A stretch of 64,000 nucleotides of DNA from an uncultured Rhodothermales bacterium (GCA_964608315.1 CAZSNF010000008.1:517-64516); one strand, 5' to 3'. Positions 508 to 17,392 are shown, numbered from the stretch's first letter. Notes: generated from the letters alone by a model not told the origin. Numbers and translations: made by a program.

Positions 508-1291
508 GCTCGCCATTGTTTCCGGCGTACATATGGGCAAGGCTCTGGCGGTAGGCCTCGTAGAAACGGTCCAGTTGCTCCTCGGCGCTCACGTTCCCGA
601 CGAACTGATGGCTTGGCAGCACTTCCGGGCGCACGCCTCTGGCGAGAAGCCGCTCCGCCACCTCCACGCGCAGCATGTTGATCAGCATGCCGCCCGTAAC
701 GGTGGACACGGGACCCGTGCGCCACTCCATTCCCTCCAGTTCCAGTACGCAATCTCCCGGAGGACACTGGTTGTCCAGCACGACATCGGCGACGTCCACG
801 AGTTTCTTGCCGGAGGAATGGGCCGCCGGCGACTGCTCGCAGTGCTCCCGGGATACGACGCCGATCACGGGCAAGCCCCGGCGCTGCGCGCCCAGCGCCA
901 TTTCCACGATGAGCGGGCGAATCCCGGACGTGGAAATCACAATGAACGCATCGTGCGGGCCAAACCGGAATCCTTTCAGAATTTCCTCGGCGTAGCCCTC
1001 GTATTTTTCGAGGAAAAGCGGGCCGCGCAGGCCATTGGCCCCCACAATGGAGGCATGGTTCGACACCGCATGCTCCACGAGCGCCACGAACCCCACGAAG
1101 CAGCCCTGCCTCGGGGTCATTTCCTCGCACATCATGCGGGAATGTCCGGCGCCGAACAGAAAGACGAGCCCGCCTTTGGCGATGCGCTCGGCGCACAACC
1201 CGGCGGCCTGTTCGACATGGGGAAGCTGCGTATCCCGCAGACGTTTCAGCAGGTCGATGGTTTTGTCGTAGTAGGCTTGTGCGGCTCCCAT
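500..1291 (-). CDS. SIS (sugar isomerase/phosphosugar-binding) domain protein
   Basis: 263-aa ORF with LVFLFGAGHSRMM and FIVISTSGIRP motifs typical of SIS-fold proteins. Overlap with the downstream ROK gene suggests translational coupling. Confidence 0.6.
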   Translation of the reverse strand: MGAAQAYYDKTIDLLKRLRDTQLPHVEQAAGLCAERIAKGGLVFLFGAGHSRMMCEEMTPRQGCFVGFVALVEHAVSNHASIVGANGLRGPLFLEKYEGYAEEILKGFRFGPHDAFIVISTSGIRPLIVEMALGAQRRGLPVIGVVSREHCEQSPAAHSSGKKLVDVADVVLDNQCPPGDCVLELEGMEWRTGPVSTVTGGMLINMLRVEVAERLLARGVRPEVLPSHQFVGNVSAEEQLDRFYEAYRQSLAHMYAGNNGEHA

Positions 1292-1547
1292 GGGGGCTTG
1301 GGGGGAAGAGAGGACGTCAATTGCGGACGAATGTCGGAAAGGTCAAGACGATTCGCGTTGATGGGGCGAATGGAATGAGCCAAGACAAATAATCTGGCGT
1401 TTTTTGTCGTCGCGAAGCCGTTATGGAGCGACGCGCGCGGCCCAACTGCGCAGAACGTCATAGCGACCGGATCGGGAAACATGCGGACAGGCTTGCAAAC
1501 AGAATGGACGAGCGCGCACGGCCGCAACGCTTATCGCGCGCAGGGCA

Positions 1548-2006
1548 TTATCCCTGGCGCGTCAAGCGAGCTATCGCAGCATAGTCGCAACTTTCGGATG
1601 TCTCTTGCGCCGTATAGGTCATTACGTCGTCCTCGAACGTAATCGACGAGGAATAGGACTCGAGGTCCCCGCATTCCGGATCCGGGTCGTCGTGAACCTG
1701 AACCGTTCCGCCTGCCGTCGGGATAAAGAATCCCGTTTTGCTTATCTCGCCTGTAACGGCCGGAAACGCCTCGCTTACGCCATCCATTATGAGCGAGGCG
1801 GTAATCGTAAGGTCCTCCTCTCTCTGGATCACATTGGCCTGCATCAGAAAATTGACAGATATGTTTGGCGTGTCTGCCTCTGTGATTCGCAGCTCCCCGG
1901 AATACTGCCCGGCCACCGAGGGCAGCCCGGATTCGTCGTTGCTGTCGCATCCAACCAGCAGCAGCGTTGTTAACAAGACGTACGCGACGGTATGCAGCTT
2001 GCGCAT
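1548..2006 (-). CDS. small hypothetical lipoprotein
   Basis: 152-aa ORF. N-terminal signal peptide with lipobox (LLLVGC). No recognisable domain. Confidence 0.5.
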   Translation of the reverse strand: MRKLHTVAYVLLTTLLLVGCDSNDESGLPSVAGQYSGELRITEADTPNISVNFLMQANVIQREEDLTITASLIMDGVSEAFPAVTGEISKTGFFIPTAGGTVQVHDDPDPECGDLESYSSSITFEDDVMTYTAQETSESCDYAAIARLTRQG

Positions 2007-2413
2007 TTTGAGATAACCAATTCGGTGAGCAGGGTAAGTTGAGACAAAAATTTAAACCGCAACGCCGCAACCTTGTTCCGTTTGGACCGCCCCGGCGAGA
2101 AGCCGCATAAAGGCGTACGGGTTATCGAGAGCCGGGAAATCGTACGGTAAAATACTGATTCTTTGCGCGAATCTCGTTATTTTGAGGTTGGGCTCCCTGC
2201 CGCAGGCGCCGGCTGCGGGAAATCGGCTGGAATCCCGAAGGGGGGCCGTTTTGCGGCGGCCTTCTCGTCCTGTACGATTAGCGGACGGTCGCCGCCGCGC
2301 AGGAGCAAACACGCAATGGAGGCAAGGCAATGAAGCGAAAAATGCGGATGCCCAATTTGTTTTCAAGGACTATACCTCGATACAGAGCGCCCGCTAACGG
2401 CGTCGCCAGACAA

Positions 2414-3295
2414 ATGCGGACCGTCGATTTGTTTGCGGGAGCCGGGGGGCTCAGCCTGGGATTTCAGCGAGCGGGCTTCGATGTCGTAGCGGCGTACGAC
2501 AAGTGGGGGCCTGCCCTGACGTGTTACGAGGAAAACTTCGACCATCCTGTCTTCTCCGTCGATCTCTCCGACATAGAGGCAGCCGTGGACCATGTCTCGC
2601 AGTACGCCCCCGAAGTTGTGACAGGCGGCCCGCCGTGCCAGGATTTTTCAAGCGCCGGGAAACGAACCGAGGGAAGCCGGGCCAGCTTGACGGAAAACTT
2701 TGCGATCATCGCCACCCGCTGCAAGCCCCAGGTCATTGTAATGGAAAATGTGACGCGGACAAGGGGAAGCGCGGCCTATGCGCGGGCAAAAAACGTTCTG
2801 AAAAATGGCGGATACCATGTTACCGAGGCGGTTCTGGACGCAAGTCTGTGCGGGTGCCCGCAATTAAGGAAGCGGTTCTTTTCTGTCTCCACGCTGGTTC
2901 CTCCCAACGGATTGCTGGAGGACCTCTTGTACGGCGGCTCCGCCGAACAGCTTACGGTGGCGGAATACATGGGCGACGAACTCGATACGGAGCATTACTA
3001 CCGCCATCCGCGCAATTACTCCCGGAGAGGCATATACTCCATCAATGAACCGAGCGCGACGATTCGGGGCGTGAACCGTCCGATTCCCCCTAATTACCCT
3101 GGACATCCCCTTGATTCCGCCCCAATCTCGGAAGCAAGACCTCTGACAACGTATGAGCGGAGCCGCATTCAGACATTTCCGAAGGATTGGGCGTGGCCGC
3201 GGGCCAAAACAACCGCAGAGCAATTGATCGGCAATGCGGTTCCCGTAGAACTCGGCTCGTTCGTAGCAACCTGCATCCGCGAAGCGGTATTATGA
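2414..3295 (+). CDS. DNA (cytosine-5)-methyltransferase (M1)
   Basis: Motif I DLFAGAGG, motif IV GGPPCQDFS, motif VI ENV, motif VIII QLRKRFF, motif X GNAVPV. ATG at 2414 sits just before motif I (the ORF track begins at 2330). The stop overlaps the next gene's start as ATGA. Confidence 0.9.
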   Translation: MRTVDLFAGAGGLSLGFQRAGFDVVAAYDKWGPALTCYEENFDHPVFSVDLSDIEAAVDHVSQYAPEVVTGGPPCQDFSSAGKRTEGSRASLTENFAIIATRCKPQVIVMENVTRTRGSAAYARAKNVLKNGGYHVTEAVLDASLCGCPQLRKRFFSVSTLVPPNGLLEDLLYGGSAEQLTVAEYMGDELDTEHYYRHPRNYSRRGIYSINEPSATIRGVNRPIPPNYPGHPLDSAPISEARPLTTYERSRIQTFPKDWAWPRAKTTAEQLIGNAVPVELGSFVATCIREAVL

Positions 3296-4371
3296 ATACT
3301 CCAGGCTTGTACGGCATCGAAAATTCGAATCGCGAAGGAGACGACCTGTGGGGCAAGAATCAGTTCAATTCGACCTTTCCAATATCGCTTTGCTGCTATA
3401 TGCGGGACCATGGCGTCCCGCCCGTGTATGTCGCTGTGGATAAAAATGGGGAGATCAGGGCCCGCGACGACGATGGCGTTTCCATGGAAGACGTATTCGG
3501 GACCCCGAAAATCGGCGCGGATATTCGCTTCGAGTTCGAAACCGTATTCGAGCCGCTGAGCGGCTTGCTCCATGACGCATTATCCGGCGTGGACGTGGTG
3601 ACGCGAACCGCCGGCGGCGAATTTTGCAGGCCGCTTGAGGTGAAGCTTACCGTAGTTCCCGATAATACCACTGCGAAGCAGCCTGAAGAAAAATGGTGCT
3701 CGGAGTTGGTCATCCGGCCCATTACGTCTGCGTACGCGGCCATCCAGTTATTCGCCAATCTCTCCGATGCCTGCCGCGCAGAGATTCGGGATATCATTGG
3801 ACCCGTAGCATTCGCCATACAGGACCCCGACAACATCGCCGAAATTCTCCTGAACGCTGACCGGATCGTCCAGGCGATGAACGAAATGATCGCTGCGTGC
3901 ATCGACTTCCAGCAGCCGTATCTGGTGCAGCCGATCTGGAAGACGGTCGGCAAAACAGCAGAATTAGCGAATCCGTGCTTTGACGTCTTCACTTGGTCGA
4001 ATCTCTCCATTCTGAAAATCCCTGTGGATTCCTGGAAAGGAAAGAAAAACAAAGTGACGCGATCGCTCCGGGAGGCTGTTCGACACCTATGGCGCTTCCG
4101 TCAACTGCTCACGGTCGGTAAGATCAACTACAACGAAATCTATCGCGGCATAGCGCTTGGCAACCAGACGGACAAATCTTTTGCGCTGAACGGAACGCGT
4201 ACGATCAAGTACATGGACCATTTCCGTTTAAGGAAACCGCATTTTTCTTCCGATATACTTCCAGCGTTGATCCTGAACGGCGGAGAAAACAGATTGAGCC
4301 CCGAGCGCAGGTTCGACGCAACCGTGTTCTATACATGCAAAGCGTTGTTGCAACGGAATTCGGATGGATGA
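3292..4371 (+). CDS. putative type II restriction endonuclease (R1), PD-ExK-like
   Basis: ATG at 3292 overlaps the M1 stop (ATGA), suggesting translational coupling. Candidate catalytic motif GVDVV...RPLEVKL (D...ExK). The family and recognition site cannot be assigned by eye. Confidence 0.6.
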   Translation: MNTPGLYGIENSNREGDDLWGKNQFNSTFPISLCCYMRDHGVPPVYVAVDKNGEIRARDDDGVSMEDVFGTPKIGADIRFEFETVFEPLSGLLHDALSGVDVVTRTAGGEFCRPLEVKLTVVPDNTTAKQPEEKWCSELVIRPITSAYAAIQLFANLSDACRAEIRDIIGPVAFAIQDPDNIAEILLNADRIVQAMNEMIAACIDFQQPYLVQPIWKTVGKTAELANPCFDVFTWSNLSILKIPVDSWKGKKNKVTRSLREAVRHLWRFRQLLTVGKINYNEIYRGIALGNQTDKSFALNGTRTIKYMDHFRLRKPHFSSDILPALILNGGENRLSPERRFDATVFYTCKALLQRNSDG

Positions 4372-4420
4372 ACTCCGCAGCCGCATTATGCGGGCTGTCA
4401 GAAGTCGCGATGCAAAGCTG
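4364..4420 (+). pseudogene. vsr: vsr 5' remnant (first ~18 codons only)
   Basis: Encodes MDELRSRIMRAVRSRDAK, near-identical to the N-terminus of the intact Vsr at 6391 (MNELRSRIMRAVRSRDTK). It then diverges and terminates. Lies inside the 143-bp direct repeat 4268-4410. Confidence 0.75.
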
Positions 4421-4494
4421 GAACAACGCAATAACGGAAATATCTATGGCGTAAACCGTAAAAATTCTTGACCTTCTCGCCGCCGTCCCGTATC

Positions 4495-5520
4495 ATGGGG
4501 CAACCCAAGCATCACCAGCCCGAATCCGCCATGTCCGCCGGCGCCCGCAAGGAACCCCTCCTGTCCACCTTTGCCGATCTGTTTTGCGGGATCGGGGGCT
4601 TCCACTACGCCGCCGAAGCGTCGGGCTTGCGCTGCGTCTTCGCCTCCGACATCGACAAGGCTGCGCAAGATCAATACGAACATAACTTCGGCATGCGCCC
4701 TGACGGGGACATCACCAAAATCCACATCGAGAACATTCCGAGCCACGACATTCTGTTCGCCGGATTTCCATGCCAGCCGTTCTCTATTATCGGCAAGATG
4801 GAGGCTATGTCGGATAGCCGGGGAACGCTGATTTACGATGTGGTGCGCATCCTGTCAGTCAAATTCCCGAAAGCGTTTGTTCTGGAGAACGTGCGGCAAC
4901 TCGCTACAATCAACAAGGGCAAAACGCTTCGCTTGATTCTGGACGCGCTGGAAGAAATAGGCTACGCCTGCTCCCACAAGATTCTGAATGCGCTCCGCTT
5001 TGGATTGCCGCAAAAGCGCGAGCGCCTGATCATTGTGGGCTTTCGGGACCGAGAAGCCCTGAAAATCTATCAATGGCCGAGAGAACGCAAGGCGTATAAA
5101 CCCCTTTCGGATATTCTGGAAACAGACCCGGACATCCGGCATTTTGCGAGCGAGCGCATCCAGGCCAAACGCAAAGCGGCGCACGCGCCCGCCGTTACTC
5201 CATCCATATGGCATGAGAACAAGGGGGGGAACGTCAGCAGTCATCCGTTTTCATGCGCCCTGCGGGCAGGCGCATCCTACAACTACTTGCTCGTTAACGG
5301 CGTAAGGCGATTGACTCCGCGGGAACTGCTGCGTTTGCAGGGTTTCCCGGAATCGTTCGAGGCGATAGGAACAGATTCGCAGATCAGGAAACAGGTTGGC
5401 AACGCCGTCCCTGTCCCTATGGTCAAAGCTGTCATTAAATCAGTAACTCATGCCGCCAACGCGACTTCGTTCAGGATACCGGAATCCCGAACCATACCCG
5501 CTGAACCAGTTCCCGCCTGA
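4495..5520 (+). CDS. DNA (cytosine-5)-methyltransferase (M2)
   Basis: Motif I DLFCGIGG, motif IV GFPCQPFS, motif VI ENV, motif VIII QKRERLIIVGF, motif X GNAVPV. The ORF track start at 4468 is TTG. The first ATG is 4495 and an alternative ATG is at 4531. Confidence 0.9.
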   Translation: MGQPKHHQPESAMSAGARKEPLLSTFADLFCGIGGFHYAAEASGLRCVFASDIDKAAQDQYEHNFGMRPDGDITKIHIENIPSHDILFAGFPCQPFSIIGKMEAMSDSRGTLIYDVVRILSVKFPKAFVLENVRQLATINKGKTLRLILDALEEIGYACSHKILNALRFGLPQKRERLIIVGFRDREALKIYQWPRERKAYKPLSDILETDPDIRHFASERIQAKRKAAHAPAVTPSIWHENKGGNVSSHPFSCALRAGASYNYLLVNGVRRLTPRELLRLQGFPESFEAIGTDSQIRKQVGNAVPVPMVKAVIKSVTHAANATSFRIPESRTIPAEPVPA

Positions 5521-6190
5521 CGTCGTCGAAAAGATCGCGTATCAGCTGGCGCACCTGCGCGCTATAGGACGCACCGATGTTCGGGGAGGGGAGTTTGAAC
5601 GCGTATTCGCCGATGCTATCGGCGGAAAAGCGCGGGGAAAGCCTCTGGGCGTCGCCGATCTTTATCGTCAAAATTTCGCATGGTCGGTCAAGACGATCAA
5701 GAAGTTTCAGCCACACCAAACGATTGGCAAACAGGTTCGCCTGATCAGCGGTCGCAATAGTCCCGTATACTCAAAAGGCATCGAAAACCCCTTCGATGAT
5801 CTGCAAAAGACCGGAGAAGCCGTTATCGAGGTTTACAATAACCGCATAGCCGAAGCCCACGAAGAGTACGACCATCTACGGTTTCTCGTCCTGATCCGTA
5901 ACTTTCCAGAAATGACGTTCACGCTCTACGAACGCTCATTGCATCCTTTTCCCGCCAACGATTGCCACTGGATCGAGAACAAACGGGGCAATTTCGAGGC
6001 ATACCGGAACAATCAGCATCGCTTTACCTGGCAGCCCCACGGCAGTCAATTCACCATCATCGAAACTGTGCCGAGAGGCGCTCTCCGCTTCCGCATAACA
6101 AAGCGCGTTCCGGTCGTTACCCGCGAAGATATCATGCGTCACATCGGCTGGAATTCCGACTGGGTAGACATCGCTGACGATGGAGTATGA
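5450..6190 (+). CDS. putative type II restriction endonuclease (R2), PD-(D/E)xK-like
   Basis: 246-aa ORF overlapping the 3' end of M2 by 71 nt. Motif GEFERVFADAIGG...GVADL...WSVKTIKK resembles E...D...(S/E)xK nuclease cores. No other recognisable domain. Confidence 0.5.
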   Translation: MPPTRLRSGYRNPEPYPLNQFPPDVVEKIAYQLAHLRAIGRTDVRGGEFERVFADAIGGKARGKPLGVADLYRQNFAWSVKTIKKFQPHQTIGKQVRLISGRNSPVYSKGIENPFDDLQKTGEAVIEVYNNRIAEAHEEYDHLRFLVLIRNFPEMTFTLYERSLHPFPANDCHWIENKRGNFEAYRNNQHRFTWQPHGSQFTIIETVPRGALRFRITKRVPVVTREDIMRHIGWNSDWVDIADDGV

Positions 6191-6398
6191 ACTGACTCCC
6201 GACAACCTGTGCAATAACGGAATCCGCATGATAAGGTACATGAATATCCCCCGCTTGAGAAAGCCGCGCCTTTCCGCCGACATGCTCCCGTCCCTGATCC
6301 TGAACGGCGGAGAAAACAGATTGAGCCCCGAGCGCAGGTTCGACTCAACCGTGTTCTATACATGCAAAGCGTTGTTGCAACGGAATCCGGATGAATGA
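6180..6398 (+). pseudogene. C-terminal fragment of an R1-like endonuclease gene
   Basis: The 72-aa ORF aligns to the last ~60 aa of R1 (IRYMNIPRLRKPRLSADMLPSLILNGGENRLSPERRFDSTVFYTCKALLQRN versus IKYMDHFRLRKPHFSSDILPALILNGGENRLSPERRFDATVFYTCKALLQRN). No upstream body of the gene is present. Confidence 0.75.
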
Positions 6399-6780
6399 AC
6401 TCCGCAGCCGCATTATGCGGGCTGTCAGAAGCCGCGACACCAAGCCGGAGATGACTGTCCGCCGGCTTGTTCATTCCATGGGGTATCGCTACCGGCTGCA
6501 TCGCAAGGACCTGCCCGGAAAACCTGACCTGGTGTTCGGTCCGCGCCGGAAGGTGATCTTCGTGCATGGATGTTTCTGGCACGGTCACGACTGTCCGCGC
6601 GGATCGCGAGAACCGAAAACGAATCGGGAGTACTGGATACCCAAGATTGCGAAGACCCGCGAGCGGGACAAAATCACCATAGAACGCCTTCGGAAAATGG
6701 GCTGGAAGGCGCTGGTAATCTGGGAATGCGAGATCGACCGTTCGTTGCCGGGGAGGATTCGGGCGTTTCTAGAGATGTAG
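6391..6780 (+). CDS. vsr: very short patch repair endonuclease Vsr
   Basis: 129 aa. SRDTKPE, GKPDLVF, IFVHGCFWHGH and ALVIWECE motifs are classic Vsr. Its genetic context is C5-MTases. Confidence 0.92.
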   Translation: MNELRSRIMRAVRSRDTKPEMTVRRLVHSMGYRYRLHRKDLPGKPDLVFGPRRKVIFVHGCFWHGHDCPRGSREPKTNREYWIPKIAKTRERDKITIERLRKMGWKALVIWECEIDRSLPGRIRAFLEM

Positions 6781-6852
6781 ATATTCATCAATTTCAAGAA
6801 GAAATTTGCACATCATGTTTTTGAAAAATTATATACGTAAATAATCAATATT

Positions 6853-8074
6853 TTAGTCTTGAAAATTGGTGATTGCGGTGACAATTTCTTCTACGGTGAT
6901 ATCCTGAAGAGGCTTATCTATTAACGAACCTTGAAAAATCCACTTATCCCAATTTCTCTGTATAAGTGGACGTGCATTTTGAATCATTTTTTCAGGTTCA
7001 GGTTCTATTATTATAAAATTTCGAAAATCAGGTTTTTTATGATACCAATTCGAAATTTCTCCATTTATTCCCTTATCGCCAAAGCTATAACCACAGATAA
7101 TCACAGTGTCGGCTTGATCTAATAACAATCGTAGATGGTAAAACAAATCAAGAAATATATCTCTGCTATAATCATATATTTTATTAAATGTGCCGATCAG
7201 TAACAATGGCCTGCCGCCGTTGAGCGGATCTTGCAGGACGCCATCCTGCGTTTTGGTATGTTCATGATCGCCGTCAAGAGGTATTCCGACTCTTGCATCG
7301 CCCCCATTGACAGGGCTAAATCGGAACCAATCGACGGAGCCGTCTACCTTGAGAAATGGGATACTCTCATTCGAAAGAAAAGATCCGTTCCAATATCTAA
7401 CGCCAGCTTCTGAATCAACAGAAAATCCATCTGAAAGCGGGATGCCTTGATTAGAAAAAAACGTCTCAACGTGCGTGTCATGACAAAGTGTTGCAACACA
7501 CGATACATTAAAATGCATACAGATATATTTAAATATTTCCAAATGATTTACTCTCTGTGGAAGATATGATAATTTGTAGCATATCATATCTGTAAGATAA
7601 TTACGAATTTCATCAAGTATTGAGTATATTTGATTGTTACAAGGTTGTATTTGATATATTTGCGAATAAATATGTGAAATATTCTTTTTTTTCACTGACG
7701 AATGAATGAACTGCCGGATTTTCTATTTCCCATTCATCTGCATATACTTGATCTGCTAAATAGAATATGTCTTCGTAGTTTGCTTGTCTGTTAGACTGCT
7801 TGACTTCTGAATAATATTTTTGTGCTTGTTCATAAAACCATTTCGCCATAAATTTAGAAATAATTACAAAATTGTCATGTTCATGATGTACTCCTTGAAG
7901 TTTCACGGCGAGATTAGGATCAGAAATATATCTATATCTTGTGTCTGTATGTCTATGCACTCCATATCCACATAAAATAGATTGCGTTAAATTTTTCGTA
8001 GAAGGAAACCCAGCCGGCATCGACGATCCTGCCCCTAACAAAATAGCAATCTTGCTGTTTTTTTGCGTATTCAT
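6853..8074 (-). pseudogene. SIR2-like (SIR2_2/ThsA-type) gene split by a frameshift in an A8 run
   Basis: Two overlapping ORFs, 7637-8074 and 6853-7695. The N-part has ILLGAGSSMPAGFPS (GAGxS NAD-binding start). The C-part has VIICGYSFGD (GxSFxD). Removing one A from the A8 run (plus-strand T8 at 7685-7692) fuses them into a protein of about 420 aa. The region is very AT-rich (sampled lines 23-33% G+C). Confidence 0.65.
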
Positions 8075-8195
8075 TGATTCTGCCTTCGGGTTTCTGGAAA
8101 ATGATGATTATCCTTTTTATATGATATATGGAGACGTTTCTCGCATACAGTCCGATAATATTTAAGGGTGGGTGACCATTTCCGTGACACCGTCG

Positions 8196-10151
8196 CTAAT
8201 TATCCATCTCCTCAATACGGCCCAGTAGCGCAATAATGCGTCCTGCCTCCTTGCTCCTTTCGAGGAAATCGTTGTAGGCCCTATACGCGTTCTCAATGAG
8301 TTCCTGGTATGTCAATACTCGAATATTTTTCGTTTCCAACGCTCGTTCTGACTCATCCCGCCTCTTCGGGGTCTCCCAGTCACGAAGGGTTTTTCCCACA
8401 ACGCAGACGGTATCTATGTTAGGGTGCCGCTCACCAGATCCTTCAAGCAATTTCCACAGTGCATTTCTGTAGCGGTCTACTTGTCCCATCAGTTGGGAGG
8501 TGTTCGTACCGACTCCCGCACGCTTCAATTCAACAATCACATGTTTCCCGGCGGTTGTGCGATAGCGAATGTCCACGCGACCGCTTTTCTCTTCCTCGGA
8601 CAGACCTGCATCAACGTCTTGAAATGCTGTACTGACCCGCTGCTCCATGTACTCCGTTGCGGTCGCTCGTTCCCAAGAGGGATCAAGTAGCCACAAGTGA
8701 TCGAATACATGCTCCTGAATTACTCTCTCACGTGCGTTTTCGTCCACCATTTCCTGTAATGCGCGAACGACGCGAATTCGACCTTGGACAATCTGGTAAT
8801 AAAAAGTTGCCTCCAGTTCATCCTGATTGCCGAATACCTTGCCGAATTGTACGATGTTTTCGCCAGTTATCTCATCGAGCGCATCAATATTCTCTTTGGC
8901 TTTCAGTGTCTCAAAGGCGAGAACGCCGTGTTTAAATAATACTGTACGGTCCTCTGGGCGGGCGATCGTCATTTCGTTGATCTTGCCAAAAATGCGCGTC
9001 GCGCGATTCCTGTCGTCAGAGCCGAGACCTTCGAACCACTCCTTGATTGCCGGATTTTCAAGGGCTGCCTTTTTACCGCCCTTGTTTCGAAGTTTCGTCC
9101 ACTCTTGGCGGATGTAGCTCAGCTCACCCACAAGCTCCTTCTTCAGTTGTCGAAATCGCTCGTCGTCTTCGATGAGTGCTTGTCGGCTCGTCGTAGCAAT
9201 ATCCTCTTTGTCGTCTTGATCCAGAGATTCCGCCAGCACTTCGCCGATCACGTATTTCGTGTATATTCCAGCCTCATCCAAGCTCTCAAGGATGTCTTCC
9301 TGCACGAGTTTGCCTCTCGATAGCACAAGAATCCGATTAAGACTCTCGTCGCCATCCTTAAGCTGGCTGGGCATCTTGACTGTGCCGATCCATCCCGAAA
9401 AGCACTTGGCGTTTCGCGGTTCGTTTTCAGAAACGTTTTTGCATTGCCGCAGGCATTGCTCCCCGTATTCCCCGTAATACCAGACAAACTCCAGCATCGG
9501 GTAGTAGTGTCTATCGGTGACTCCAACTTCATCCCCGTTGATATGAACAGCAAAGAAGTGCTCAGAGCCAATCACGCTAAAACGTCGTGCGACTCGGCGA
9601 CGCAGATAGGTCTCGACGTTATCCAGGCGCTTTCGAAGATCGCGTAGCGTGATCTTCGTGCCTTGCTGAATATCAATTTTATCTCTTGGCAAAGGCGCTG
9701 GCTCATAGGTTCCGCCACCGACCTTGCCCTCTATAACGGATCTGATGTCTGGAAGCGACATCGTGAATCCGTTGCTTGTCCCATTCTTGGCGGATTGCAC
9801 TTCAATCGTGTCGGCTATCGAGAAAAGGGAGAGCTTACCGATTCCCTTCCTGCCCATGACGGGGCGATAACGCTGCGGAGTCAGTGCGTCGCGGCCTTCT
9901 CGCCGATTGCGCCCGACCCGCAGATACTTCTTGTTGATGTCGTCGACTGACATACCATGGCCATCGTCGGTAATGACTACTGTCTGATCGCCTTTATCCA
10001 CATTAATGCAAACTGTCTCGGCATCTGCATCCCATGCATTCGCGACCGCCTCCGCAAGGACGGCGGGGATGTTACTGTACAGGTTAATGCCCAGATGGTT
10101 GAGCACATTCAGGTCCAAGGTCATTTGATACTGAGGCTCAGGCATAACCAT
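8196..10151 (-). CDS. GHKL (HATPase_c_3/MORC-like) ATPase fused to C-terminal PD-(D/E)xK nuclease-like domain
   Basis: Bergerat-fold motifs EAVANAWDA (N-box), ITDDGHGM (G1) and GRKGIGKLS (G2). The C-terminus has HLWLLDPSW...GRVDIRYRTTAGKHVIVELKRAG...QVDRY, which resembles a D...ExK core of the Shedu/DUF4263 type. The ATG overlaps the stop of the upstream MTase by 14 nt. Confidence 0.7.
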   Translation of the reverse strand: MVMPEPQYQMTLDLNVLNHLGINLYSNIPAVLAEAVANAWDADAETVCINVDKGDQTVVITDDGHGMSVDDINKKYLRVGRNRREGRDALTPQRYRPVMGRKGIGKLSLFSIADTIEVQSAKNGTSNGFTMSLPDIRSVIEGKVGGGTYEPAPLPRDKIDIQQGTKITLRDLRKRLDNVETYLRRRVARRFSVIGSEHFFAVHINGDEVGVTDRHYYPMLEFVWYYGEYGEQCLRQCKNVSENEPRNAKCFSGWIGTVKMPSQLKDGDESLNRILVLSRGKLVQEDILESLDEAGIYTKYVIGEVLAESLDQDDKEDIATTSRQALIEDDERFRQLKKELVGELSYIRQEWTKLRNKGGKKAALENPAIKEWFEGLGSDDRNRATRIFGKINEMTIARPEDRTVLFKHGVLAFETLKAKENIDALDEITGENIVQFGKVFGNQDELEATFYYQIVQGRIRVVRALQEMVDENARERVIQEHVFDHLWLLDPSWERATATEYMEQRVSTAFQDVDAGLSEEEKSGRVDIRYRTTAGKHVIVELKRAGVGTNTSQLMGQVDRYRNALWKLLEGSGERHPNIDTVCVVGKTLRDWETPKRRDESERALETKNIRVLTYQELIENAYRAYNDFLERSKEAGRIIALLGRIEEMDN

Positions 10152-11226
10152 TCTCCACTAATGTGCGCCGTACGCTCCGTGCAACCGCACATCCGAGAGA
10201 GACAGGAACCGCATTGCCTATCCATCTGGCCGTCGGCGCAATCACGCAACTCTGATCCGGCGGAAGAAATTCGTAGGACATAGGAAATGTTTGCAGGAGG
10301 GCCGCCTCACGCAGAGAAATCGCCCGGTCCTGTTCGGGATGGCCGAACCTGCCGTTGCCGAATCCATTGCACTGGGTGGTGATGGTCGGCGCAGGCGCGT
10401 CCCAAGACATCCGACCGTAGACACTACCGTACCAGCGACCAGTCGCTTCCTTATGGCAATCCGCGATCAACTCGTCGTCCCAATCGCGCCAACTACCTCC
10501 CTCCTTAGCTGCACGAATACGTTTCAAGTTGAGCGAAGAAAGCCCGCTTGCACAATGGATAGGATCATTAGGGTCCCTGCCACCTGCAGGGATGGACGGC
10601 AAGTGTTCAATGGCGTCGCGGACAGTCACTTGATCTGACGGTTTATGGGTCGGCGACACAAGTTCTATCGGGCCAACTCTGGATGCCAGAACCACAAGGC
10701 GTTTGCGGGTCTGGGGTACGCCGTAAGCGGCGCAATCCACTACATTCTCCCACACAGTGTATCCAGAAGTCGTCAGCGTATCAAGAAATTCGCTGTACAC
10801 CTTTCCCTTCTGGAAAGTGCTGAGTCTCGGCACATTTTCCATGGATACAATGTCAGGCCGCACCTCATGAACAAGGCGACCGAACTCTGTAAGCAGGCGC
10901 CATTTCTGGTCCGAACGTTTCCTGCTATAAGTAGAAAACGGTTGACACGGCGCGCAACCAACAAGAATGGATGGCTCGCCAGGGACATACAACTCTTTGA
11001 TAGCGTCCGCATCAATGTCCTTGACACTTTTCGTAATGAACCGGGCGTAATTGTTACGCTCGTACGCATATCGACAGGATGGATCTACATCGACACCCGC
11101 TCGCACATTGAATCCCTCGAGTACGAAACCATGGCTTAATCCTCCAACGCCGCAAAACAGATCGACCACGCTGCCTGCTGTCGACTGTAATGCGGCTCCA
11201 TTATCCTTTGATTCACGCTCGAACAT
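10138..11226 (-). CDS. DNA (cytosine-5)-methyltransferase (M3)
   Basis: Motif I DLFCGVGG, motif IV GCAPCQPFS, motif VI ENV, motif VIII QTRKRLVVLASR, motif X GNAVPV. The ORF track start at 11274 is TTG. The first ATG at 11226 gives MFERESK..., about 20 aa before motif I. Confidence 0.9.
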   Translation of the reverse strand: MFERESKDNGAALQSTAGSVVDLFCGVGGLSHGFVLEGFNVRAGVDVDPSCRYAYERNNYARFITKSVKDIDADAIKELYVPGEPSILVGCAPCQPFSTYSRKRSDQKWRLLTEFGRLVHEVRPDIVSMENVPRLSTFQKGKVYSEFLDTLTTSGYTVWENVVDCAAYGVPQTRKRLVVLASRVGPIELVSPTHKPSDQVTVRDAIEHLPSIPAGGRDPNDPIHCASGLSSLNLKRIRAAKEGGSWRDWDDELIADCHKEATGRWYGSVYGRMSWDAPAPTITTQCNGFGNGRFGHPEQDRAISLREAALLQTFPMSYEFLPPDQSCVIAPTARWIGNAVPVSLGCAVARSVRRTLVENGYA

Positions 11227-11361
11227 TTGACCTGGATTGTTTTTGATCCCCTCCAGAGTATAAAATGGAGCCAAGGCCCAGCGCTACCGCCGAAAGCATC
11301 GCCAGCAGCATGGAAAATACGAAATTCCTCGAACCCAAACCACACCCGCAGCACCCCCCTT

Positions 11362-12732
11362 TCACCCCCTCCCCATCCAGTACGCCTCGATTTCCTCCAG
11401 GCTGCGCCCCTTCGTTTCCGGCAAGACCTTCCAGCCAAGCCAGATGGCCGGGGAACACAGCACGGCAAACAACCAGAAGGTCCCGGCGGGCGACAGCGTA
11501 TCCAGCAGCCACGGCACCGTCTGCCCCACAAGCGCCGTACCGCCCCACAGGGCGAAGGTGGCGACGGACATGGCCCGCCCCCGCACGCGCGTCGGGTACA
11601 TCTCCGCAAGCAGCACCCAGATGACCGGGCCGAACGACGCCGCAAAGCAGGCGATGTAAATCAGAATAAAGACGAGCAGCCACGGGCCTTCCGTCGCGCC
11701 GAACCGGAAAAGCCCCCCGATGACCAGCAGCGAAACGACCAGCCCCGATACGCCCCCGATGAGGAGCGGCCTTCTGCCGAGATCGTCTATTTTCCAGATG
11801 GCGACCAGGGTGAACAGCACATTCACCACGCCGATCACCACCTGGCCGCCCAGCGCGTCGCCCAGCGTGAATCCGGCCTCTTCCAGAATCCTCGGGCCAT
11901 AATAAATAATGGCGTTGATGCCGCTTACCTGCGTCAGAAAACCGAGCGCCACGCCCAGCAGGATCGAAAACCGGATGCCCCGATGCCCCAGAATGCGCTT
12001 CCAGGATTCCGGCTCCTGGGCCAGCGCCGTCTCGATTTCCGCCACCTGACCGGCGGCGGTTTCCGTATCCGCCACCTGCGCCAGAATCTTGCGGGCTTCG
12101 CCGGGGCGTTTCCGGGCCACCAGCCAGCGCGGGCTTTCCGGCACCATCAAAAGCAACGCAAGGAAACACAGCGCAGGCACGGCTTCGCTGCCAAGCATGC
12201 CGCGCCACACCTCGTCTCCGGCGAAAATGCCTTCGGATACGCCGGGCGCGCGACGCAGCAGCCAGGCATTTACGAAATACGACGTCAGAATGCCGACCGT
12301 GATGGCGAGTTGGTACATAGCCACCATGCGCCCTCGTACCCGCGAAGGCGATACTTCGGAGATATACAAGGGGGACAGCATGGAAGCCACCCCGACCCCT
12401 ACGCCGCCGACAAGCCGGTATACGATGAGTATGAAATGCCCGCCGGAATATGCGCATCCGATCGCGGAAAGCAAAAACAGCGCGGCGGACAACATCAGGA
12501 CGCGCTTGCGCCCGAACCGGTCGCTCAGGAAGCCCGCCGCCGAAACGCCCAGAATACACCCTGTCAGCGCCGAACTGACGTACCACCCTTCCATGACCGG
12601 CCCCAACCCGAACTTGTCCTTGACGAACCCGATGGTGCCGGAAATCACCGCCGTATCGTAGCCGAACAGAAACCCGCCGAGCGATGCTATCAGGGCAAGG
12701 CGCCACAAATAGCCGGAAGAACGAGACGTCAT
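11362..12732 (-). CDS. MFS sugar porter (sugar:H+ symporter family)
   Basis: 456 aa with about 12 predicted TM segments. Signatures GRKRVLM, PESPRWL and PETKGRSLEEIE. Confidence 0.88.
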   Translation of the reverse strand: MTSRSSGYLWRLALIASLGGFLFGYDTAVISGTIGFVKDKFGLGPVMEGWYVSSALTGCILGVSAAGFLSDRFGRKRVLMLSAALFLLSAIGCAYSGGHFILIVYRLVGGVGVGVASMLSPLYISEVSPSRVRGRMVAMYQLAITVGILTSYFVNAWLLRRAPGVSEGIFAGDEVWRGMLGSEAVPALCFLALLLMVPESPRWLVARKRPGEARKILAQVADTETAAGQVAEIETALAQEPESWKRILGHRGIRFSILLGVALGFLTQVSGINAIIYYGPRILEEAGFTLGDALGGQVVIGVVNVLFTLVAIWKIDDLGRRPLLIGGVSGLVVSLLVIGGLFRFGATEGPWLLVFILIYIACFAASFGPVIWVLLAEMYPTRVRGRAMSVATFALWGGTALVGQTVPWLLDTLSPAGTFWLFAVLCSPAIWLGWKVLPETKGRSLEEIEAYWMGRG

Positions 12733-12737
12733 GGCGG

Positions 12738-13703
12738 TTACGGCGTTGGGGCCAGGGGCGGCGCAGCGGAGGATACGGAACGCACCGCCTCCAAAAAATG
12801 GCGCAGCACAGGGTCTGGATCGTCCTCAAGCCACGCCACCCTGAGCACAAGACGGGGCGCAGGACTCGCAAGCGGCACGAACCGAACTTCCTCCGCGCCT
12901 GGCCGATTCCGCAGGGAAGCCGGCGCAAACGCCACGCCCAGCCCCGCCGCCGCCATGCCCAGCGCCGCGCCGACCCGGTTCGCCCGCTGCGCAATGCGCG
13001 GCCCGAACCCCGCCTGGCGACACACCGCCACGAGGCCATCGAACAAGGCGGGCTCGAACGCCCGATCCACCAGGATAAACGATTCGTCCGCCAGATCGGC
13101 CAACGCGACTTCGGAAGCGGCGGCGAGCGGATGGCGCGCGGGCAACGCCAGCATCACCTCTTCGCGAGTCACTGCCTCGGACGCAACGTCTTCGGGGAAA
13201 GCGCTGCCGAACGCGGCGGAAATGGTTCGTCGCCGGAGCGCATACGGTTGTTCGTGCGTCCGCATTTCGCGCAGAGTAATCGCAATATGAGGATGGCGCT
13301 CCCGGAACCGGCGCAGGCAACGCGGCAGTACGCCGTACATGGCATACCCCGTAAACCCGATGGCAAGGCGGCCCACCTCGCCCCGAGCAGCCCGCTGCAC
13401 TTCCCGGCGGACCCCCTCCACCTGATCCAGCAGACGGCGGGCTTCCTCCAAAAACGCCGCGCCCGCCCCGGTCAACTCCACCGCATGTCCGCTCCGGTCG
13501 AACAACTCCACGCCCAGTTCTTCCTCGAGCCGCTGGATATGCCGACTCAGCGTAGACTGGGTCAGGGATAGACGGTCGGCAGCCCGGCTGAAGTTCTTTT
13601 CCTCGGCGGCGGCAACGAAAGAAAGGATGTGCTGGGTGTCCACAACCAGACGTAAAAACGCGATCTGTGCAAAAACTGCATAAAGATAGGGGCTATTATG
13701 CAA
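12738..13703 (-). CDS. LysR-family transcriptional regulator
   Basis: N-terminal wHTH: FVAAAEEKNFSRAADRLSLTQSTLSRHIQRLEEELGVELFDR. The start is uncertain. An in-frame GTG at 13643 gives a typical LTTR N-terminus; the ATG at 13703 adds 20 atypical residues. Confidence 0.85.
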   Translation of the reverse strand: MHNSPYLYAVFAQIAFLRLVVDTQHILSFVAAAEEKNFSRAADRLSLTQSTLSRHIQRLEEELGVELFDRSGHAVELTGAGAAFLEEARRLLDQVEGVRREVQRAARGEVGRLAIGFTGYAMYGVLPRCLRRFRERHPHIAITLREMRTHEQPYALRRRTISAAFGSAFPEDVASEAVTREEVMLALPARHPLAAASEVALADLADESFILVDRAFEPALFDGLVAVCRQAGFGPRIAQRANRVGAALGMAAAGLGVAFAPASLRNRPGAEEVRFVPLASPAPRLVLRVAWLEDDPDPVLRHFLEAVRSVSSAAPPLAPTP

Positions 13704-13708
13704 TTATT
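13666..13708. promoter_or_regulatory. two adjacent copies of the TATGCA-N5-TGCA palindrome upstream of the LysR gene (candidate LTTR box)
   Basis: 13666-13685 tgtgcaaaaactgcataaag (reverse complement ctttatgcagtttttgcaca) and a degenerate copy 13689-13708 ttatgcaattattctatagg. Same motif as the four copies at 17111-17265. Fits the loose T-N11-A LTTR pattern. Confidence 0.4.
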
Positions 13709-13774
13709 CTATAGGTCAACATGAGGGTGGAAATTTTTTCCGTTTGGGAACCCGGAACGCCATCGCTTATAATC

Positions 13775-13941
13775 AGGGAACCTCTGATTAATTCCGCAAA
13801 GTTCAGAGGCTGCGAAGGACGCTTCACGTCCGCCATGCCCTGAATCCAGAGCGTTTATCGCTGATTTCAACGACGCAGTCATAACGTCCTGTGCGTGTGA
13901 ACGTGAAGCGCTGATCGAAGTAGATTTAATCAGAGGTTCCT
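13775..13941 (+). repeat. MITE-like nested-palindrome element, copy A (short form lacking the inner hairpin module)
   Basis: Termini agggaacctctgattaattc ... atttaatcagaggttcct. The interior matches copies D and I except for a deletion of about 95 bp. Lies in the divergent LysR/dioxygenase intergenic region. Confidence 0.85.
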
Positions 13942-13990
13942 CAGTATTACGGAGCATCCCGCTCCCGGACAAAACCAATTGGAGGTCGCG

Positions 13991-14803
13991 ATGGATCAGG
14001 ACGATCTGCCCGTCGGGCGAATTCTGAGTCGGAGAGAAGCGCTTCAGCTCTTATCCGGCGGTGGCGGCGCATTCCTCCTCGGCGGCGCCGCGTACGCCTC
14101 GATCGCCGGAACGTCCGCTTCCGCGAATTTCCCGGCCCGAACGGACGGCGCACCGCTGCCCGACTGTATCGTTCGTCCGGAAATGACCGAAGGACCGTAC
14201 TTCACCGACGAACGACTCGAACGATCGGATATCCGGCTCGAACCCTCGACCGGAGAAGTGAAACCCGGACTGCCGCTTGCGCTCACCTTCAACGTATCGC
14301 AGATCCGGGACGGGGCGTGCGCTCCCCTTGCCGGAGCGCTCGCAGACATATGGCAGTGCGACGCGCTGGGCCGCTATTCGGCCTTCAACGACAATGCGTT
14401 TGGCTTCGATACGCGCGGCGAATCATTCCTCAGGGGATATCAGCGAACGGATGAGCACGGCGCCGCTTCTTTTGCAACGATTTATCCCGGCTGGTATCCA
14501 GGCCGGGCGGTCCACATCCATTTCAAGATCCGCACGGAAGATGCGGAAGGGCAGGCGTACGAATTCACGTCGCAACTGTTTTTTGACGAGTCGCTGAACG
14601 ATGTCGTCCATGCCCGCGAGCCCTATGCGGAGCATGGACAACGGAACAGGCTGAATACGAGTGACCGCATCTTCAGCAAGGAACTTCTGCTCGACATCGC
14701 GTCGCAGGACGATGCCTGCAGCGCCACGTTCGGCATCGGTCTTGATCTGACGGATGCTGCGGTCGGCCGTATCGACGGCTTCAGACGTCGGCGGCGTCGT
14801 TAG
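13991..14803 (+). CDS. intradiol ring-cleavage dioxygenase-like protein with Tat signal
   Basis: ggagg SD at 13981 and ATG at 13991. Twin-arginine signal SRREALQLL. TEGPYF, GRYSAF and GRAVHIHFKI motifs are typical of the dioxygenase_C family. Confidence 0.7.
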   Translation: MDQDDLPVGRILSRREALQLLSGGGGAFLLGGAAYASIAGTSASANFPARTDGAPLPDCIVRPEMTEGPYFTDERLERSDIRLEPSTGEVKPGLPLALTFNVSQIRDGACAPLAGALADIWQCDALGRYSAFNDNAFGFDTRGESFLRGYQRTDEHGAASFATIYPGWYPGRAVHIHFKIRTEDAEGQAYEFTSQLFFDESLNDVVHAREPYAEHGQRNRLNTSDRIFSKELLLDIASQDDACSATFGIGLDLTDAAVGRIDGFRRRRRR

Positions 14804-14945
14804 CCGCCGGCGACGGAACGGCGCTTCGCGGTGATCGAGGAGGAACGCGGTGCGTTTGGGACATGATGCCTACCGTCCCGGAAACGATCATCCGATCCTG
14901 GTAGCCCCCGCTTAATGTGCGGGTGGATGCCCTGTGTGTCCGTAT

Positions 14946-15665
14946 TCAGGCAATCTGATCTGCGAGATCCTCGAAATCCCTGGTGACGACATCCACCGAG
15001 GGATCCGGGACAAGGTCCGTCGTTTGGGTTGGCCCGTATTCCCGGGTTCGATAGACGAAGGCAGTGCGGAACCCCACCGCCTGCGCCGCCAGCAGGTCGG
15101 CATTGTGGGCGGCGACCATCATCACCTGTTCCGGCAGGAGACCGAGCAACCGGGCCGCCGTCAGGTAGACCTCCGGGTCGGGCTTGTAACGACGCGCCAG
15201 TTCCGAAGAAAGGATGCAATCCCAGCGCAGGTCGGCTTGCTTCGCCATGTGGGTCAGGAGGGCAACGTTTCCATTGGAGAGGGGGGCTACGAGGTAGCGT
15301 CGGCGCAACCTTTCGATCCCTGCACGGGCGTCCGGCCAGGGATCGAGTCGGCGCCATACGCGGTTCAGATGATCTTTCTCCGCTTCGCCAAGTCCCTCGA
15401 TCCGGAACCGGACCAGCAATTCGTCCAGGATCATCCGATGGAGCGCGTCGATGTTCGACCAGGGCAGTTCGCCCGTGCGGACGCGGTGCATGAACGGCTC
15501 GTATCCGGCCCGCCATGCATGGGCGAATTCCTCCCAGTCCACCGAAAGCGCTTTCTGCTTGCCGAGCGCCCGCCCCTCGCGAATGATGGTGCTTCGCCAG
15601 TCGACGACCGTGCCGAAAACATCGAAGGTCAGCGCTTTTATGGAGGCAATATCCATGGAATGCAC
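14946..15665 (-). CDS. haloacid dehalogenase type II (HAD superfamily)
   Basis: FDVFGTVVDW (DxxGT nucleophile motif), SNGN and KPDPEVY motifs. 239 aa. Confidence 0.8.
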   Translation of the reverse strand: MHSMDIASIKALTFDVFGTVVDWRSTIIREGRALGKQKALSVDWEEFAHAWRAGYEPFMHRVRTGELPWSNIDALHRMILDELLVRFRIEGLGEAEKDHLNRVWRRLDPWPDARAGIERLRRRYLVAPLSNGNVALLTHMAKQADLRWDCILSSELARRYKPDPEVYLTAARLLGLLPEQVMMVAAHNADLLAAQAVGFRTAFVYRTREYGPTQTTDLVPDPSVDVVTRDFEDLADQIA

Positions 15666-15668
15666 GGG

Positions 15669-16538
15669 CTACGGGATACCCGGATCAAATCTGTTTTCCG
15701 CTTGCCGCAGCCAGTGCGCGAGGCCGTGACCGATGGCGCCCATACGGACGACCAGCCCCGGATGGCGCACGTACTGCGTGATCATCGCCCGCGCCGCTTC
15801 CGGCATGTCGATGCGCTCTGAGCGAAGACGCGCAAGGGAGACTCCCTCTGCTTGCGCTCCCGCCAGCAATTGCTGAATTGCGCGCTGGATTGTCCCGTTT
15901 TCCTGAAGCGGCGCGAGACCCGCATGAATGACGGCAAGCAAACCGGGCCAATGGGCAAGGTGTCGCCAGAACGTGGCGAGGCCAGGTTCGTCGGGCGTTG
16001 CCCCGAAGCGATTCAGACGATGAACCAGAGCCCAGGTGTCCGCCGCCATGTCCACTTGCGCAAGCAGCGGGGGCAAGGCAGGCCACGACGGCGCATGAGG
16101 AGAAACCGGATGCTTCGCGGGCCGTCCCCCGGGCGTCGCGACGAGGCCCGTGAGCGCCATCAGGTTCAGCCCGTTCGAGCGGTTATAGGCATCGAGAAGC
16201 GCCTGGATCGCCGAAAGGTCGCCCGCCGTAACGCCCGCGCGGTCCAGTTGGCCGGGAACGAGCGGTTCAGGTACCGGCAGCACGACACGCTCCAGCGCCC
16301 TGCGCAGCGCCGCATCCGGCTGGCCGGACGCATAGAGCGGCTTCGCCGCCGCCCAGACGGCGCGCAATCCCCCCTCCACGCCGGCGAGCGCGCGCCAGAT
16401 CGACGTGACAAGCGGAATCCGCAGGGTCTGGCGAATGTCTGCGAAAATGATGGCGGTTTCGCCCGTCGCCTCGGCCTCTTCAATCGCCGAAACCGGATCG
16501 TAGGGCGCTATTTCCGTATTTACCTGACCGGCGTACAT
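15669..16538 (-). CDS. DehI-like (group I alpha-haloacid dehalogenase family) protein
   Basis: By-eye similarity to DehI as I recall it: FADIRQTLRIPLV (cf. YEDIRLTLRVPWV), LLDAYNRSNGLNLMALTGL (cf. VLYAFNYGNPKYLLLITAL) and HLAHWPGLLAVI (cf. ALANWPKVLQIV). Immediately upstream of the HAD-II dehalogenase. Confidence 0.55.
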   Translation of the reverse strand: MYAGQVNTEIAPYDPVSAIEEAEATGETAIIFADIRQTLRIPLVTSIWRALAGVEGGLRAVWAAAKPLYASGQPDAALRRALERVVLPVPEPLVPGQLDRAGVTAGDLSAIQALLDAYNRSNGLNLMALTGLVATPGGRPAKHPVSPHAPSWPALPPLLAQVDMAADTWALVHRLNRFGATPDEPGLATFWRHLAHWPGLLAVIHAGLAPLQENGTIQRAIQQLLAGAQAEGVSLARLRSERIDMPEAARAMITQYVRHPGLVVRMGAIGHGLAHWLRQAENRFDPGIP

Positions 16539-16545
16539 ACTGTAT

Positions 16546-16670
16546 GATCGAAGTAGGGCCTGTTAACACTATGCAGCGGCGCTCTGGCAAGGAATGACGA
16601 AGCAAAAATAGCGTGGCGACCCCGCATAATGAGGAATGGCACAGCCAGAGCGTCTCTCGCAGCCTCCCGA
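16546..16670 (+). repeat. partial MITE-like element, copy H (inner hairpin module only)
   Basis: gatcgaagtag + gggcctgttaa + ggcgctctggcaaggaatgacgaagca...cataatgaggaatgg...gccagagcg matches the internal module of copies I, E, D and C. No terminal repeats. Confidence 0.7.
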
Positions 16671-16674
16671 TCCC

Positions 16675-17060
16675 CTACAACGAAACCGAGAACGCCAGAT
16701 ACAGGTTTCGTCCCTCGCTGGGCAGATTTCCGAAACTCAGGTGTTCGTGATAGAAGGCGTCGAACAGATTTTCCAGCCCGCCGCGCACCTCCATGCCGGA
16801 AGACGCTTCGACGCTGCCGCGCAGATTCACGACAAAATACCCATCGGTGCCGTCCTCGTCGACCGCGATGCGGGCCACGCGATTCTGCGGCAGAGCCATC
16901 CGGGCCTCGACCTCGCTCCACCAGCGCGCTCTGTCAAGACGCACGCTGAGCGAGCTCGTTAAGGGGGGAATCAGATGCATCGGTTCGCCTGTTTCCAGGT
17001 TCTGCCCTCTGGTCCAGGCGGCCCCGGCGGCGAATTCAAGCCCTTTCGCCAACCGGGCGA
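16675..17060 (-). pseudogene. TonB-dependent receptor, C-terminal fragment only
   Basis: The last ~120 aa (…TDGYFVVNLRGSVEASSGMEVRGGLENLFDAFYHEHLSFGNLPSEGRNLYLAFSVSL) look like the terminal beta-strands of a TBDR. No plug or barrel body lies upstream; a tRNA gene is there instead. Confidence 0.6.
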
Positions 17061-17110
17061 CGCCACAGGAGCGTCGCGCTTCGGCGTACGCGCCAACCGC
17101 CCGCAAAGCA

Positions 17111-17265
17111 TCTATGCAGTTTTTGCATAGAACTGGGGTTTTCCATGCAATTTTTGCATAATCAAATTCAAAAACATCGCGCCCGGACATATTTTCCCGC
17201 ATAAACGCAAATCATCTATGCAATTTTTGCATAAAGAGGGCATGTTCTATGCAATTTTCGCATGA
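17111..17265. repeat. four copies of a 19-20 bp palindrome (T)CTATGCAA-TTT-TTGCATA(A)
   Basis: 17111-17130 tctatgcagtttttgcatag; 17143-17161 ccatgcaatttttgcataa; 17215-17234 tctatgcaatttttgcataa; 17246-17265 ttctatgcaattttcgcatg. They form two pairs spaced about 31 bp, with the pairs 104 bp apart. Confidence 0.85.

Positions 17266-17318: not shown

Positions 17319-17392
<74 letters not shown>

Follow-up and report, generated by a model that had tools for sequence, protein, structure and literature searches.

We analysed a 64,000-nt stretch of DNA from the genome of an uncultured Rhodothermales bacterium (the window; all positions refer to this whole stretch), in which three adjacent open reading frame (ORF) units on the minus strand encode a C5-cytosine DNA methyltransferase (MTase), a 651-aa protein joining a GHKL ATPase to a nuclease, and a SIR2-like protein. 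With a probability of about 0.88, the MTase and the ATPase-nuclease form a Type II restriction-modification (R-M) pair of a family with an established name, HgiDII/BbrUII, accompanied by the gene vsr, and the SIR2-like gene is a separate inserted cassette of low GC content, a pseudogene here. An earlier note, made from the sequence alone, had proposed a composite defence module in which methylation marks self, the ATPase-nuclease acts as effector and SIR2 as a second one. The locus belongs to a known type of system and is not a new composite defence. The first two roles stand, as those of a plain R-M system; the third does not, given the distribution of the SIR2-like gene and the doubly inactivated copy in the window.

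A Type II pair of the HgiDII/BbrUII family

ORF calling returned the three co-oriented genes, with the 14-nt overlap and the 121-bp gap, as they had been described. The overlap joins the stop of the MTase to the start of the 651-aa ORF and shrinks to 8 nt with the second ATG of the latter, which was favoured by the gene caller on an identical contig and gives a protein of 649 aa. The GC content goes down stepwise, from about 0.63 in the flanks to 0.54 in the MTase, 0.51 in the gene of the 651-aa protein and about 0.36 in the SIR2-like gene.

The MTase gene (10138..11274, minus strand) encodes 378 aa when read from the first TTG. On the identical contig the gene caller started it at ATG 11226 (362 aa), and this is likely the true start. 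The protein matches PF00145 with an E-value of 1.5e-56 over nearly the whole profile (positions 2-322 of 324), the PADLOC model MTase_II (PDLC03378) with 1.8e-88 and the dcm model TIGR00675 with 122.6 bits. The motifs FCGVGG, PCQPFS, ENV, QTRKR and GNAVP can all be read in the translation, and the first domain call for this gene was right.

The identity of the 651-aa protein (8196..10151, minus strand) was revealed by the NCBIfam equivalog NF050001.1, "BbrUII/HgiDII family restriction enzyme", a model based on two proteins that are listed as Type II restriction endonucleases (REases). The protein scored 793.8 bits against a cutoff of 550, with residues 8-643 aligned to profile positions 1-656 of 659, and it also matched the PADLOC model REase_II (PDLC03419) with 1e-98. 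More than 6600 homologues make this a large family. Because REase_II and MTase_II matches fall on neighbouring genes, defence-system models see the MTase and the 651-aa gene as an ordinary Type II R-M system, in keeping with the PADLOC definition of one. The view that the locus holds no conventional REase and represents an unnamed system is thereby not supported: the 651-aa protein itself belongs to a named family of Type II REases, and current tools place the locus among ordinary Type II R-M systems, an outcome that the earlier note had named as counting against its idea.

M.HgiDII, which has M.BbrUII as a homologue, has been characterised as an m5C MTase acting on GTCGAC (PMC5867850). The type of M.BbrUII is disputed, as it has also been described as an N6-adenine methylase (PMC5829577). 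R.HgiDII has been described as a GHKL domain with a second domain (PMC2441816). The window pair shares with R.HgiDII, R.BbrUII and their M partners the full-length equivalog match above the cutoff, intact GHKL motifs I-IV followed by a C-terminal domain, and the adjoining m5C MTase gene. It differs in that GTCGAC is the site of the HgiDII and BbrUII systems and only a predicted site of the window system, and in its host, a Rhodothermales-like metagenomic lineage.

The gene neighbourhood was compared across 80 REase loci, taken from one-genome-per-species contigs, searched with the window proteins and spanning Pseudomonadota, Acidobacteriota, Chloroflexota, Poribacteria, Actinomycetota, Bacillota and archaea. 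An orthologous C5-MTase (40-88 % identity), co-oriented and ending at most 200 bp upstream of the REase, was present at 62 of the 80 loci; in 76 of these loci the sequence reached far enough upstream, which makes it 62 of 76. A vsr gene lay at most 1.6 kb downstream of the REase at 18 of 79 loci, in 14 of them convergent. SIR2 stood beside the REase at a single locus out of 80, L010, from a Rhodothermales metagenome-assembled genome whose REase is 83 % identical to that of the window. As SIR2 occurs at 1/80 loci and the MTase at 62/80, SIR2 does not belong to the conserved unit, which is M-R, often with vsr.

In the window, vsr encodes a very-short-patch repair endonuclease (6391..6780, plus strand; PF03852 1.2e-30; TIGR00632 156 bits) and is convergent with the R-M operon. 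m5C R-M systems usually come with such a gene. Pairwise comparisons among the window, L010 and the sponge-metagenome contig L084 gave ratios of nonsynonymous to synonymous substitution rates (dN/dS) of 0.09-0.11 for the REase and 0.09-0.14 for vsr; the value for the MTase, from the window and L010 pair only, was 0.10. All three genes are thus under strong purifying selection (0.09-0.14).

Homologues of the REase on 25 PLSDB plasmids (from Rhizobium, Halobaculum, Rubrobacter, Deinococcus, Burkholderia and others) are labelled merely 'ATP-binding protein', often beside a 'DNA cytosine methyltransferase', and the HgiDII-type REase family is under-annotated in many public records.

Domain architecture and relation to Shedu nucleases

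The N-terminal part of the REase (9192..10151, minus strand; about aa 1-320) consists of a GHKL (Bergerat) ATPase and an Hsp90/MORC-like middle domain of the S5 type. PF13589 (HATPase_c_3) matches aa 30-142 with 5.5e-20 and 72.2 bits. The Bergerat motifs noticed at first reading are genuine, as their residues (E34/N38/D41, D62xG64xG66, G100-RKGIG-K106 and G164-T165) do not vary across 38 aligned homologues, the window protein among them, with identities of 51-88 %. A full-length AlphaFold2 (AF2) model had a pLDDT of 80. Its Foldseek matches were the N-terminal and middle domains of TRAP1/Hsp90 and MORC2 over about 430 residues, with E-values of about 1e-11 to 1e-10, and no nuclease was among them. 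Likewise, a sequence search of the PDB recovered only Hsp90-type N-domains with the full protein and nothing with a C-terminal profile.

The two functional parts are connected by a long helical linker (8742..9191, minus strand; about aa 321-470), for which AF2 predicts helices at 331-363, 378-393, 399-425 and 433-467. The C-terminal domain (8196..8741, minus strand; about aa 471-651 and the stop codon) is a PD-(D/E)xK nuclease similar to Shedu SduA_C and NucS. Residues E475, D527, E541-x-K543 and Q557..Y561 are invariant or near-invariant among the 38 homologues and make up the E-D-ExK-Q pattern of RecB/NucS/Shedu-type PD-(D/E)xK nucleases, with Shedu motifs I-IV (E, D, ExK, Q) all present. 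PF14082 (SduA_C, formerly DUF4263) gave no match to the full-length protein; the C-terminal 189 aa alone matched the whole profile with E=7e-4 and 20.2 bits, which is below the 27-bit gathering cutoff. Among the C-terminal domains of 19 family members, 15 matched SduA_C, again below threshold (best 4.4e-5), and NucS likewise matched 15 of the 19.

Because the full-length model had yielded GHKL and middle-domain matches only, a separate AF2 model of the C-terminal 189 aa was made. It had a pLDDT of 81 and an alpha-beta-beta-alpha-beta core. Its top Foldseek match was the Bacillus cereus Shedu nuclease 8ti9 (E=4.7e-3, probability 0.97, TM-score 0.37-0.39), with further PD-(D/E)xK nucleases ranking after it; no match reached E<=0.001, and with TM-scores below 0.4 the structural likeness to Shedu is weak. 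Sequence profiles and motifs weigh more here than the structural match, and we regard the domain as a Shedu/NucS-like PD-(D/E)xK nuclease. The Shedu/DUF4263 reading of this C-terminus in the earlier note was accordingly right in kind.

The same note had not recognised a fusion of GHKL with a Shedu-like nuclease, followed by SIR2, as a named system, but the architecture of the fusion is published. Iyer, Abhiman and Aravind described in 2008 paraMORC3, a GHKL and S5 protein with a C-terminal RecB-like E-D-ExK nuclease, encoded in R-M operons next to genes for DNA cytosine methylase and Vsr (PMC2292703). The window locus has each of these features, that is GHKL and S5-like middle, C-terminal nuclease motifs of the restriction endonuclease fold, and both neighbours. 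We found no difference of substance between paraMORC3 and the window protein, although the link to R.HgiDII was not named in that work. GHKL-type N-terminal domains were later listed by Gu et al. within "type 1D" Shedu (10.1101/2023.08.10.552793), and Adams et al. equated paraMORC3 with Shedu type I-D (PMC12137116).

A homologue with 38 % identity, annotated as 'ParaMORC3', is also encoded by the P2-like Escherichia phage PhiR44_1 (L091, PV340563.1 6021-9069). The gene is convergent with a 'Dcm protein' gene, and the two have gpQ (portal) on one side and gpA (replication) on the other. Since this homologue comes with a Dcm gene, HgiDII-type R-M systems are also carried by temperate phages.

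With this kinship in mind, the 651-aa protein might be taken for an immune nuclease of Shedu type I-D, whose GHKL clamp would sense DNA structure, DNA ends or a sign of infection, and not for a sequence-specific Type IIP enzyme, the methylase being loosely associated or independent. VcSduA, a protein of GHKL and DUF4263, provides anti-phage defence as a single gene, and this defence is lost on mutation of the ATPase (E27A) or of the nuclease (K557A) (PMC12137116). The window protein has the same three-part architecture, with E34 corresponding to E27 of VcSduA and K543 to K557. The SduA_C matches across the family and the Shedu nuclease at the top of the Foldseek list agree with such a role, as do the loci at which the methylase is missing, and 602 Shedu genes are reported by Gu et al. 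to be embedded in R-M systems (10.1101/2023.08.10.552793). However, VcSduA works without a methylase, and the window protein is tightly paired with one: the MTase gene overlaps it here and is linked to, and co-evolves with, the REase in 62/80 loci across phyla, a hallmark of cognate M and R genes. The protein moreover passes an equivalog model that was built around recorded Type II REases. Against PADLOC, no SduA model matches the full-length protein at E<=0.01, and each of these models matches only one of the 19 C-terminal domains; PF14082, the defining domain of the class, is matched by the C-terminal domain only below the Pfam cutoff. We therefore consider a methylase-independent Shedu role improbable for this protein.

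Six paralogues of the HgiDII-type GHKL-nuclease (L051, L052, L053, L059, L071 and L080) were found in OY282369.1, a 3.2-Mb sequence labelled 'uncultured Cenarchaeum sp.'. They are 46-47 % identical to the window REase and all lack an orthologous C5-MTase immediately upstream. Four of the six have no C5-MTase match in 8 kb, and L051 and L053 have one 2-5 kb off. These paralogues may be methylase-free (Shedu-like) members or the product of a mobile-element expansion.

The SIR2-like gene

The third gene (6853..8074, minus strand) lies outside the R-M unit and is a pseudogene of the SIR2_2 family, which now reads as two ORFs that overlap (7637..8074 and 6853..7695). The window copy scores 17-18 bits with PF13289 (SIR2_2), below the cutoff of 24.5, and the intact orthologue of L010 scores 27.7 bits, above it. 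The PADLOC domain models SIR2 and Aga_SIR2 match the window copy with about 1e-12. As had been pointed out, the gene is frameshifted and differs in base composition (GC 0.36). The +1 frameshift lies in a run of eight A (7685..7692; T8 on the plus strand), and without one of these A the ORF again reaches 406 aa and is collinear with the L010 orthologue, which is intact, also 406 aa long and of the same low GC. Since three independent Logan assemblies, 100 % identical to the window over 3.7-4.7 kb, carry the same run and frameshift, the lesion is not an assembly artefact of a single contig.

Two catalytic positions had been listed as substituted, and they turned out to be of different nature. 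The change of the catalytic His to Asp (K-V-D-G-S, codon 7342..7344) is unique to the window, the motif being otherwise near-invariant as K-x-H-G-S, and is a sign of decay. The motif TLCHD, which replaces the canonical Asn motif (7477-7491), is not, because it is invariant across the stand-alone SIR2 family of about 400 aa to which the gene belongs. In this family, for which we recovered 362 matches, GAGSS and TLCHD are invariant and HGS is near-invariant. The window copy thus has neither an intact domain nor the catalytic His, while both lesion positions are intact in L010 and in L084, whose SIR2 is an intact protein of 403 aa. In the metagenome contig L086 (ERZ23491381; 3346-4566) the SIR2 gene carries an independent in-frame stop (…HGSVN*FRF…), with M and R intact. 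SIR2 has thus been lost at least twice in the clade.

Several features mark the gene as a separate single-gene cassette of low GC, inserted between R and vsr in the ancestor of a narrow Rhodothermales clade. The 121 bp that separate the stop of the REase from the start of SIR2 (8075..8195, minus strand) are AT-rich and, by sequence and GC profile, form the beginning of the low-GC insert; they are partly conserved with L010. Insertion into an M-R-vsr unit is indicated because elsewhere vsr takes the place of SIR2 directly after R. The earlier note had warned that SIR2 might be a decaying neighbour without relation to the other genes, and this caveat is borne out by the separate cassette and its two lesions in the window.

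Related effectors do not supply the gene with a partner. It shares the SIR2_2-type Rossmann domain with ThsA of Thoeris, SIR2-HerA, DSR1/2 and the pAgo-associated (SPARSA) proteins, and in intact relatives also the GAGSS and HGS motifs, but it differs from them in standing alone at about 400 aa, short of a large DSR-type architecture and with no SLOG/STALD partner at any locus examined, in having TLCHD instead of the catalytic Asn motif and, in the window, in being a pseudogene. No ThsB/TIR, HerA or pAgo partner was present in the window, as had been noticed before, or beside the five SIR2 homologues examined, and no conserved partner gene of the stand-alone family was seen in these five neighbourhoods. 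Homologues of 45-51 % identity were found beside transposases, in a RES/HEPN and SNF2 island, beside kinase/FHA genes and beside an MmeI-type enzyme; there was no HgiDII-type R-M system next to them in the four loci examined.

R and SIR2 are also neighbours, about 121-122 bp apart, in L010, L084, L086 and L088. At a dS similar to that of the REase, the dN/dS of SIR2 is 0.24-0.27 in the pairs among the window, L010 and L084, which shows that SIR2 has been co-inherited with the R-M genes in this clade under a weaker constraint. It is possible, if unlikely, that the stand-alone SIR2_2 family of about 400 aa (at least 360 members) is a one-gene, NAD-consuming defence that was co-inherited behind the HgiDII-type R-M system as a back-up layer, the copies of the window and of one relative being since dead.

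Highly improbable is the three-gene composite defence, with methylation marking self, the nuclease sensing and cutting, and SIR2 depleting NAD+: the three genes do adjoin in the same orientation, the R-SIR2 adjacency is repeated, and SIR2, co-inherited with R, has been under some selection, but SIR2 is all but missing from REase loci at which the MTase is the rule, its homologues reside away from HgiDII-type R-M in all four loci examined, it has a GC of 0.36 against 0.51-0.54 and an AT-rich upstream region of its own, it was inactivated independently at least two times (in the window and by the L086 nonsense mutation) with M, R and vsr intact, and it was placed into an existing M-R-vsr unit, so that the composite is largely refuted by gene distribution.

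Proposed mechanism and genomic setting

As a Type II system, the pair would work as follows. The C5-MTase would methylate the host copies of the recognition site, which by analogy with the characterised HgiDII and BbrUII systems is expected to be GTCGAC. The C-terminal PD-(D/E)xK domain of the REase (E475, D527, E541xK543, Q557) would cut DNA unmethylated at this site. By analogy with MutL/MORC and VcSduA, ATP most likely drives the GHKL and Hsp90/MORC-like middle domains to dimerise into a clamp by which the nuclease is loaded onto DNA or licensed there. Translation of M and R would be coupled through the overlap of stop and start codon, and Vsr would mend the T:G mismatches that result from deamination of m5C.

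Some observations weigh against this reading of the locus. No adjacent orthologous MTase was found in 16 of the 76 loci with enough upstream sequence, and 7 of the 80 loci have no C5-MTase match within 8 kb; some members of the HgiDII family are not classical R-M enzymes. The sub-cutoff PF14082 score and the low TM-scores of the nuclease domain have been mentioned above. GTCGAC is depleted in the window (12 observed, about 23 expected; ratio 0.51, z about -2.4), but its rank among the 64 palindromic hexamers is no higher than 11th, ten being more depleted, and the signal is non-specific. The literature searched contained no biochemical data showing that HgiDII-type enzymes depend on ATP. Finally, SIR2 has been kept beside R in at least four related lineages (dS about 0.7), with a dN/dS of about 0.27 between two intact copies, and the neighbourhood of R and SIR2 may have been of some benefit in these relatives.

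The pair is one of several R-M cassettes in this part of the window. A second pair consists of a C5-MTase (2330..3295, plus strand; PF00145 1.1e-53) and an overlapping REase of the HindVP family (3187..4371, plus strand; PF09519 8.6e-86; PADLOC REase_II 1.7e-81). A third cassette contains another C5-MTase (4468..5520, plus strand; PF00145 3e-84), overlapped by an ORF of 246 aa (5450..6190, plus strand). This ORF has no match in Pfam, NCBIfam or PADLOC and is a candidate orphan restriction enzyme. On both sides of the third cassette lies a direct repeat of 234 nt (4189-4422 and 6216-6449; identity 84 %) that duplicates the 3'-terminal part of the HindVP REase gene together with the beginning of vsr; a remnant ORF of 72 aa (6180..6398) from the HindVP C-terminus has also been left. 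The cassette looks like an insertion because in L084 the HindVP REase gene runs directly into vsr.

The stack of R-M genes covers about 1400-11270 in the window, 6878-12110 in L010 and the whole contig in L084, and in related genomes the spot lies between a major facilitator superfamily (MFS) sugar-transporter gene and a SIS-domain gene. The stack grows from one locus to the next. The unit of L010 is M-R-SIR2-vsr, and there is no other R-M system at this locus. L084 has M-R-SIR2, followed on the opposite strand by the convergent vsr, the HindVP-type REase gene and its MTase gene. The window adds the third R-M cassette. This chromosomal spot is a hot spot of R-M accretion. There was no integrase or tRNA at its edges, the nearest tRNA being a tRNA-Arg at 17318-17392, which was also the only match in an Rfam scan of positions 1-20000. 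Consensus scans for promoters and terminators between 6700 and 11600 gave nothing beyond the shuffled background.

The main value of the analysis is a correction. Read from sequence alone the locus looks exotic, since a Shedu-like nuclease carries a MORC-like ATPase and has a methylase and a sirtuin for neighbours, but it is a textbook case of Type II R-M; its family, HgiDII, was cloned in 1991 and is now named in NCBI annotation models. Two residual interests remain, the uncharacterised stand-alone SIR2 family and the link between R.HgiDII and the fold of Shedu-type nucleases. The C-terminal domain of R.HgiDII was left 'unassigned to any fold' in a 2008 classification of REases, and as a by-product of this work it can be seen as an SduA_C/NucS-like PD-(D/E)xK nuclease. 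This assignment joins the HgiDII-type REases, paraMORC3 and the GHKL-type Shedu proteins such as VcSduA into one lineage, and comparing its methylase-linked and methylase-free members could show how a GHKL clamp controls the nuclease.

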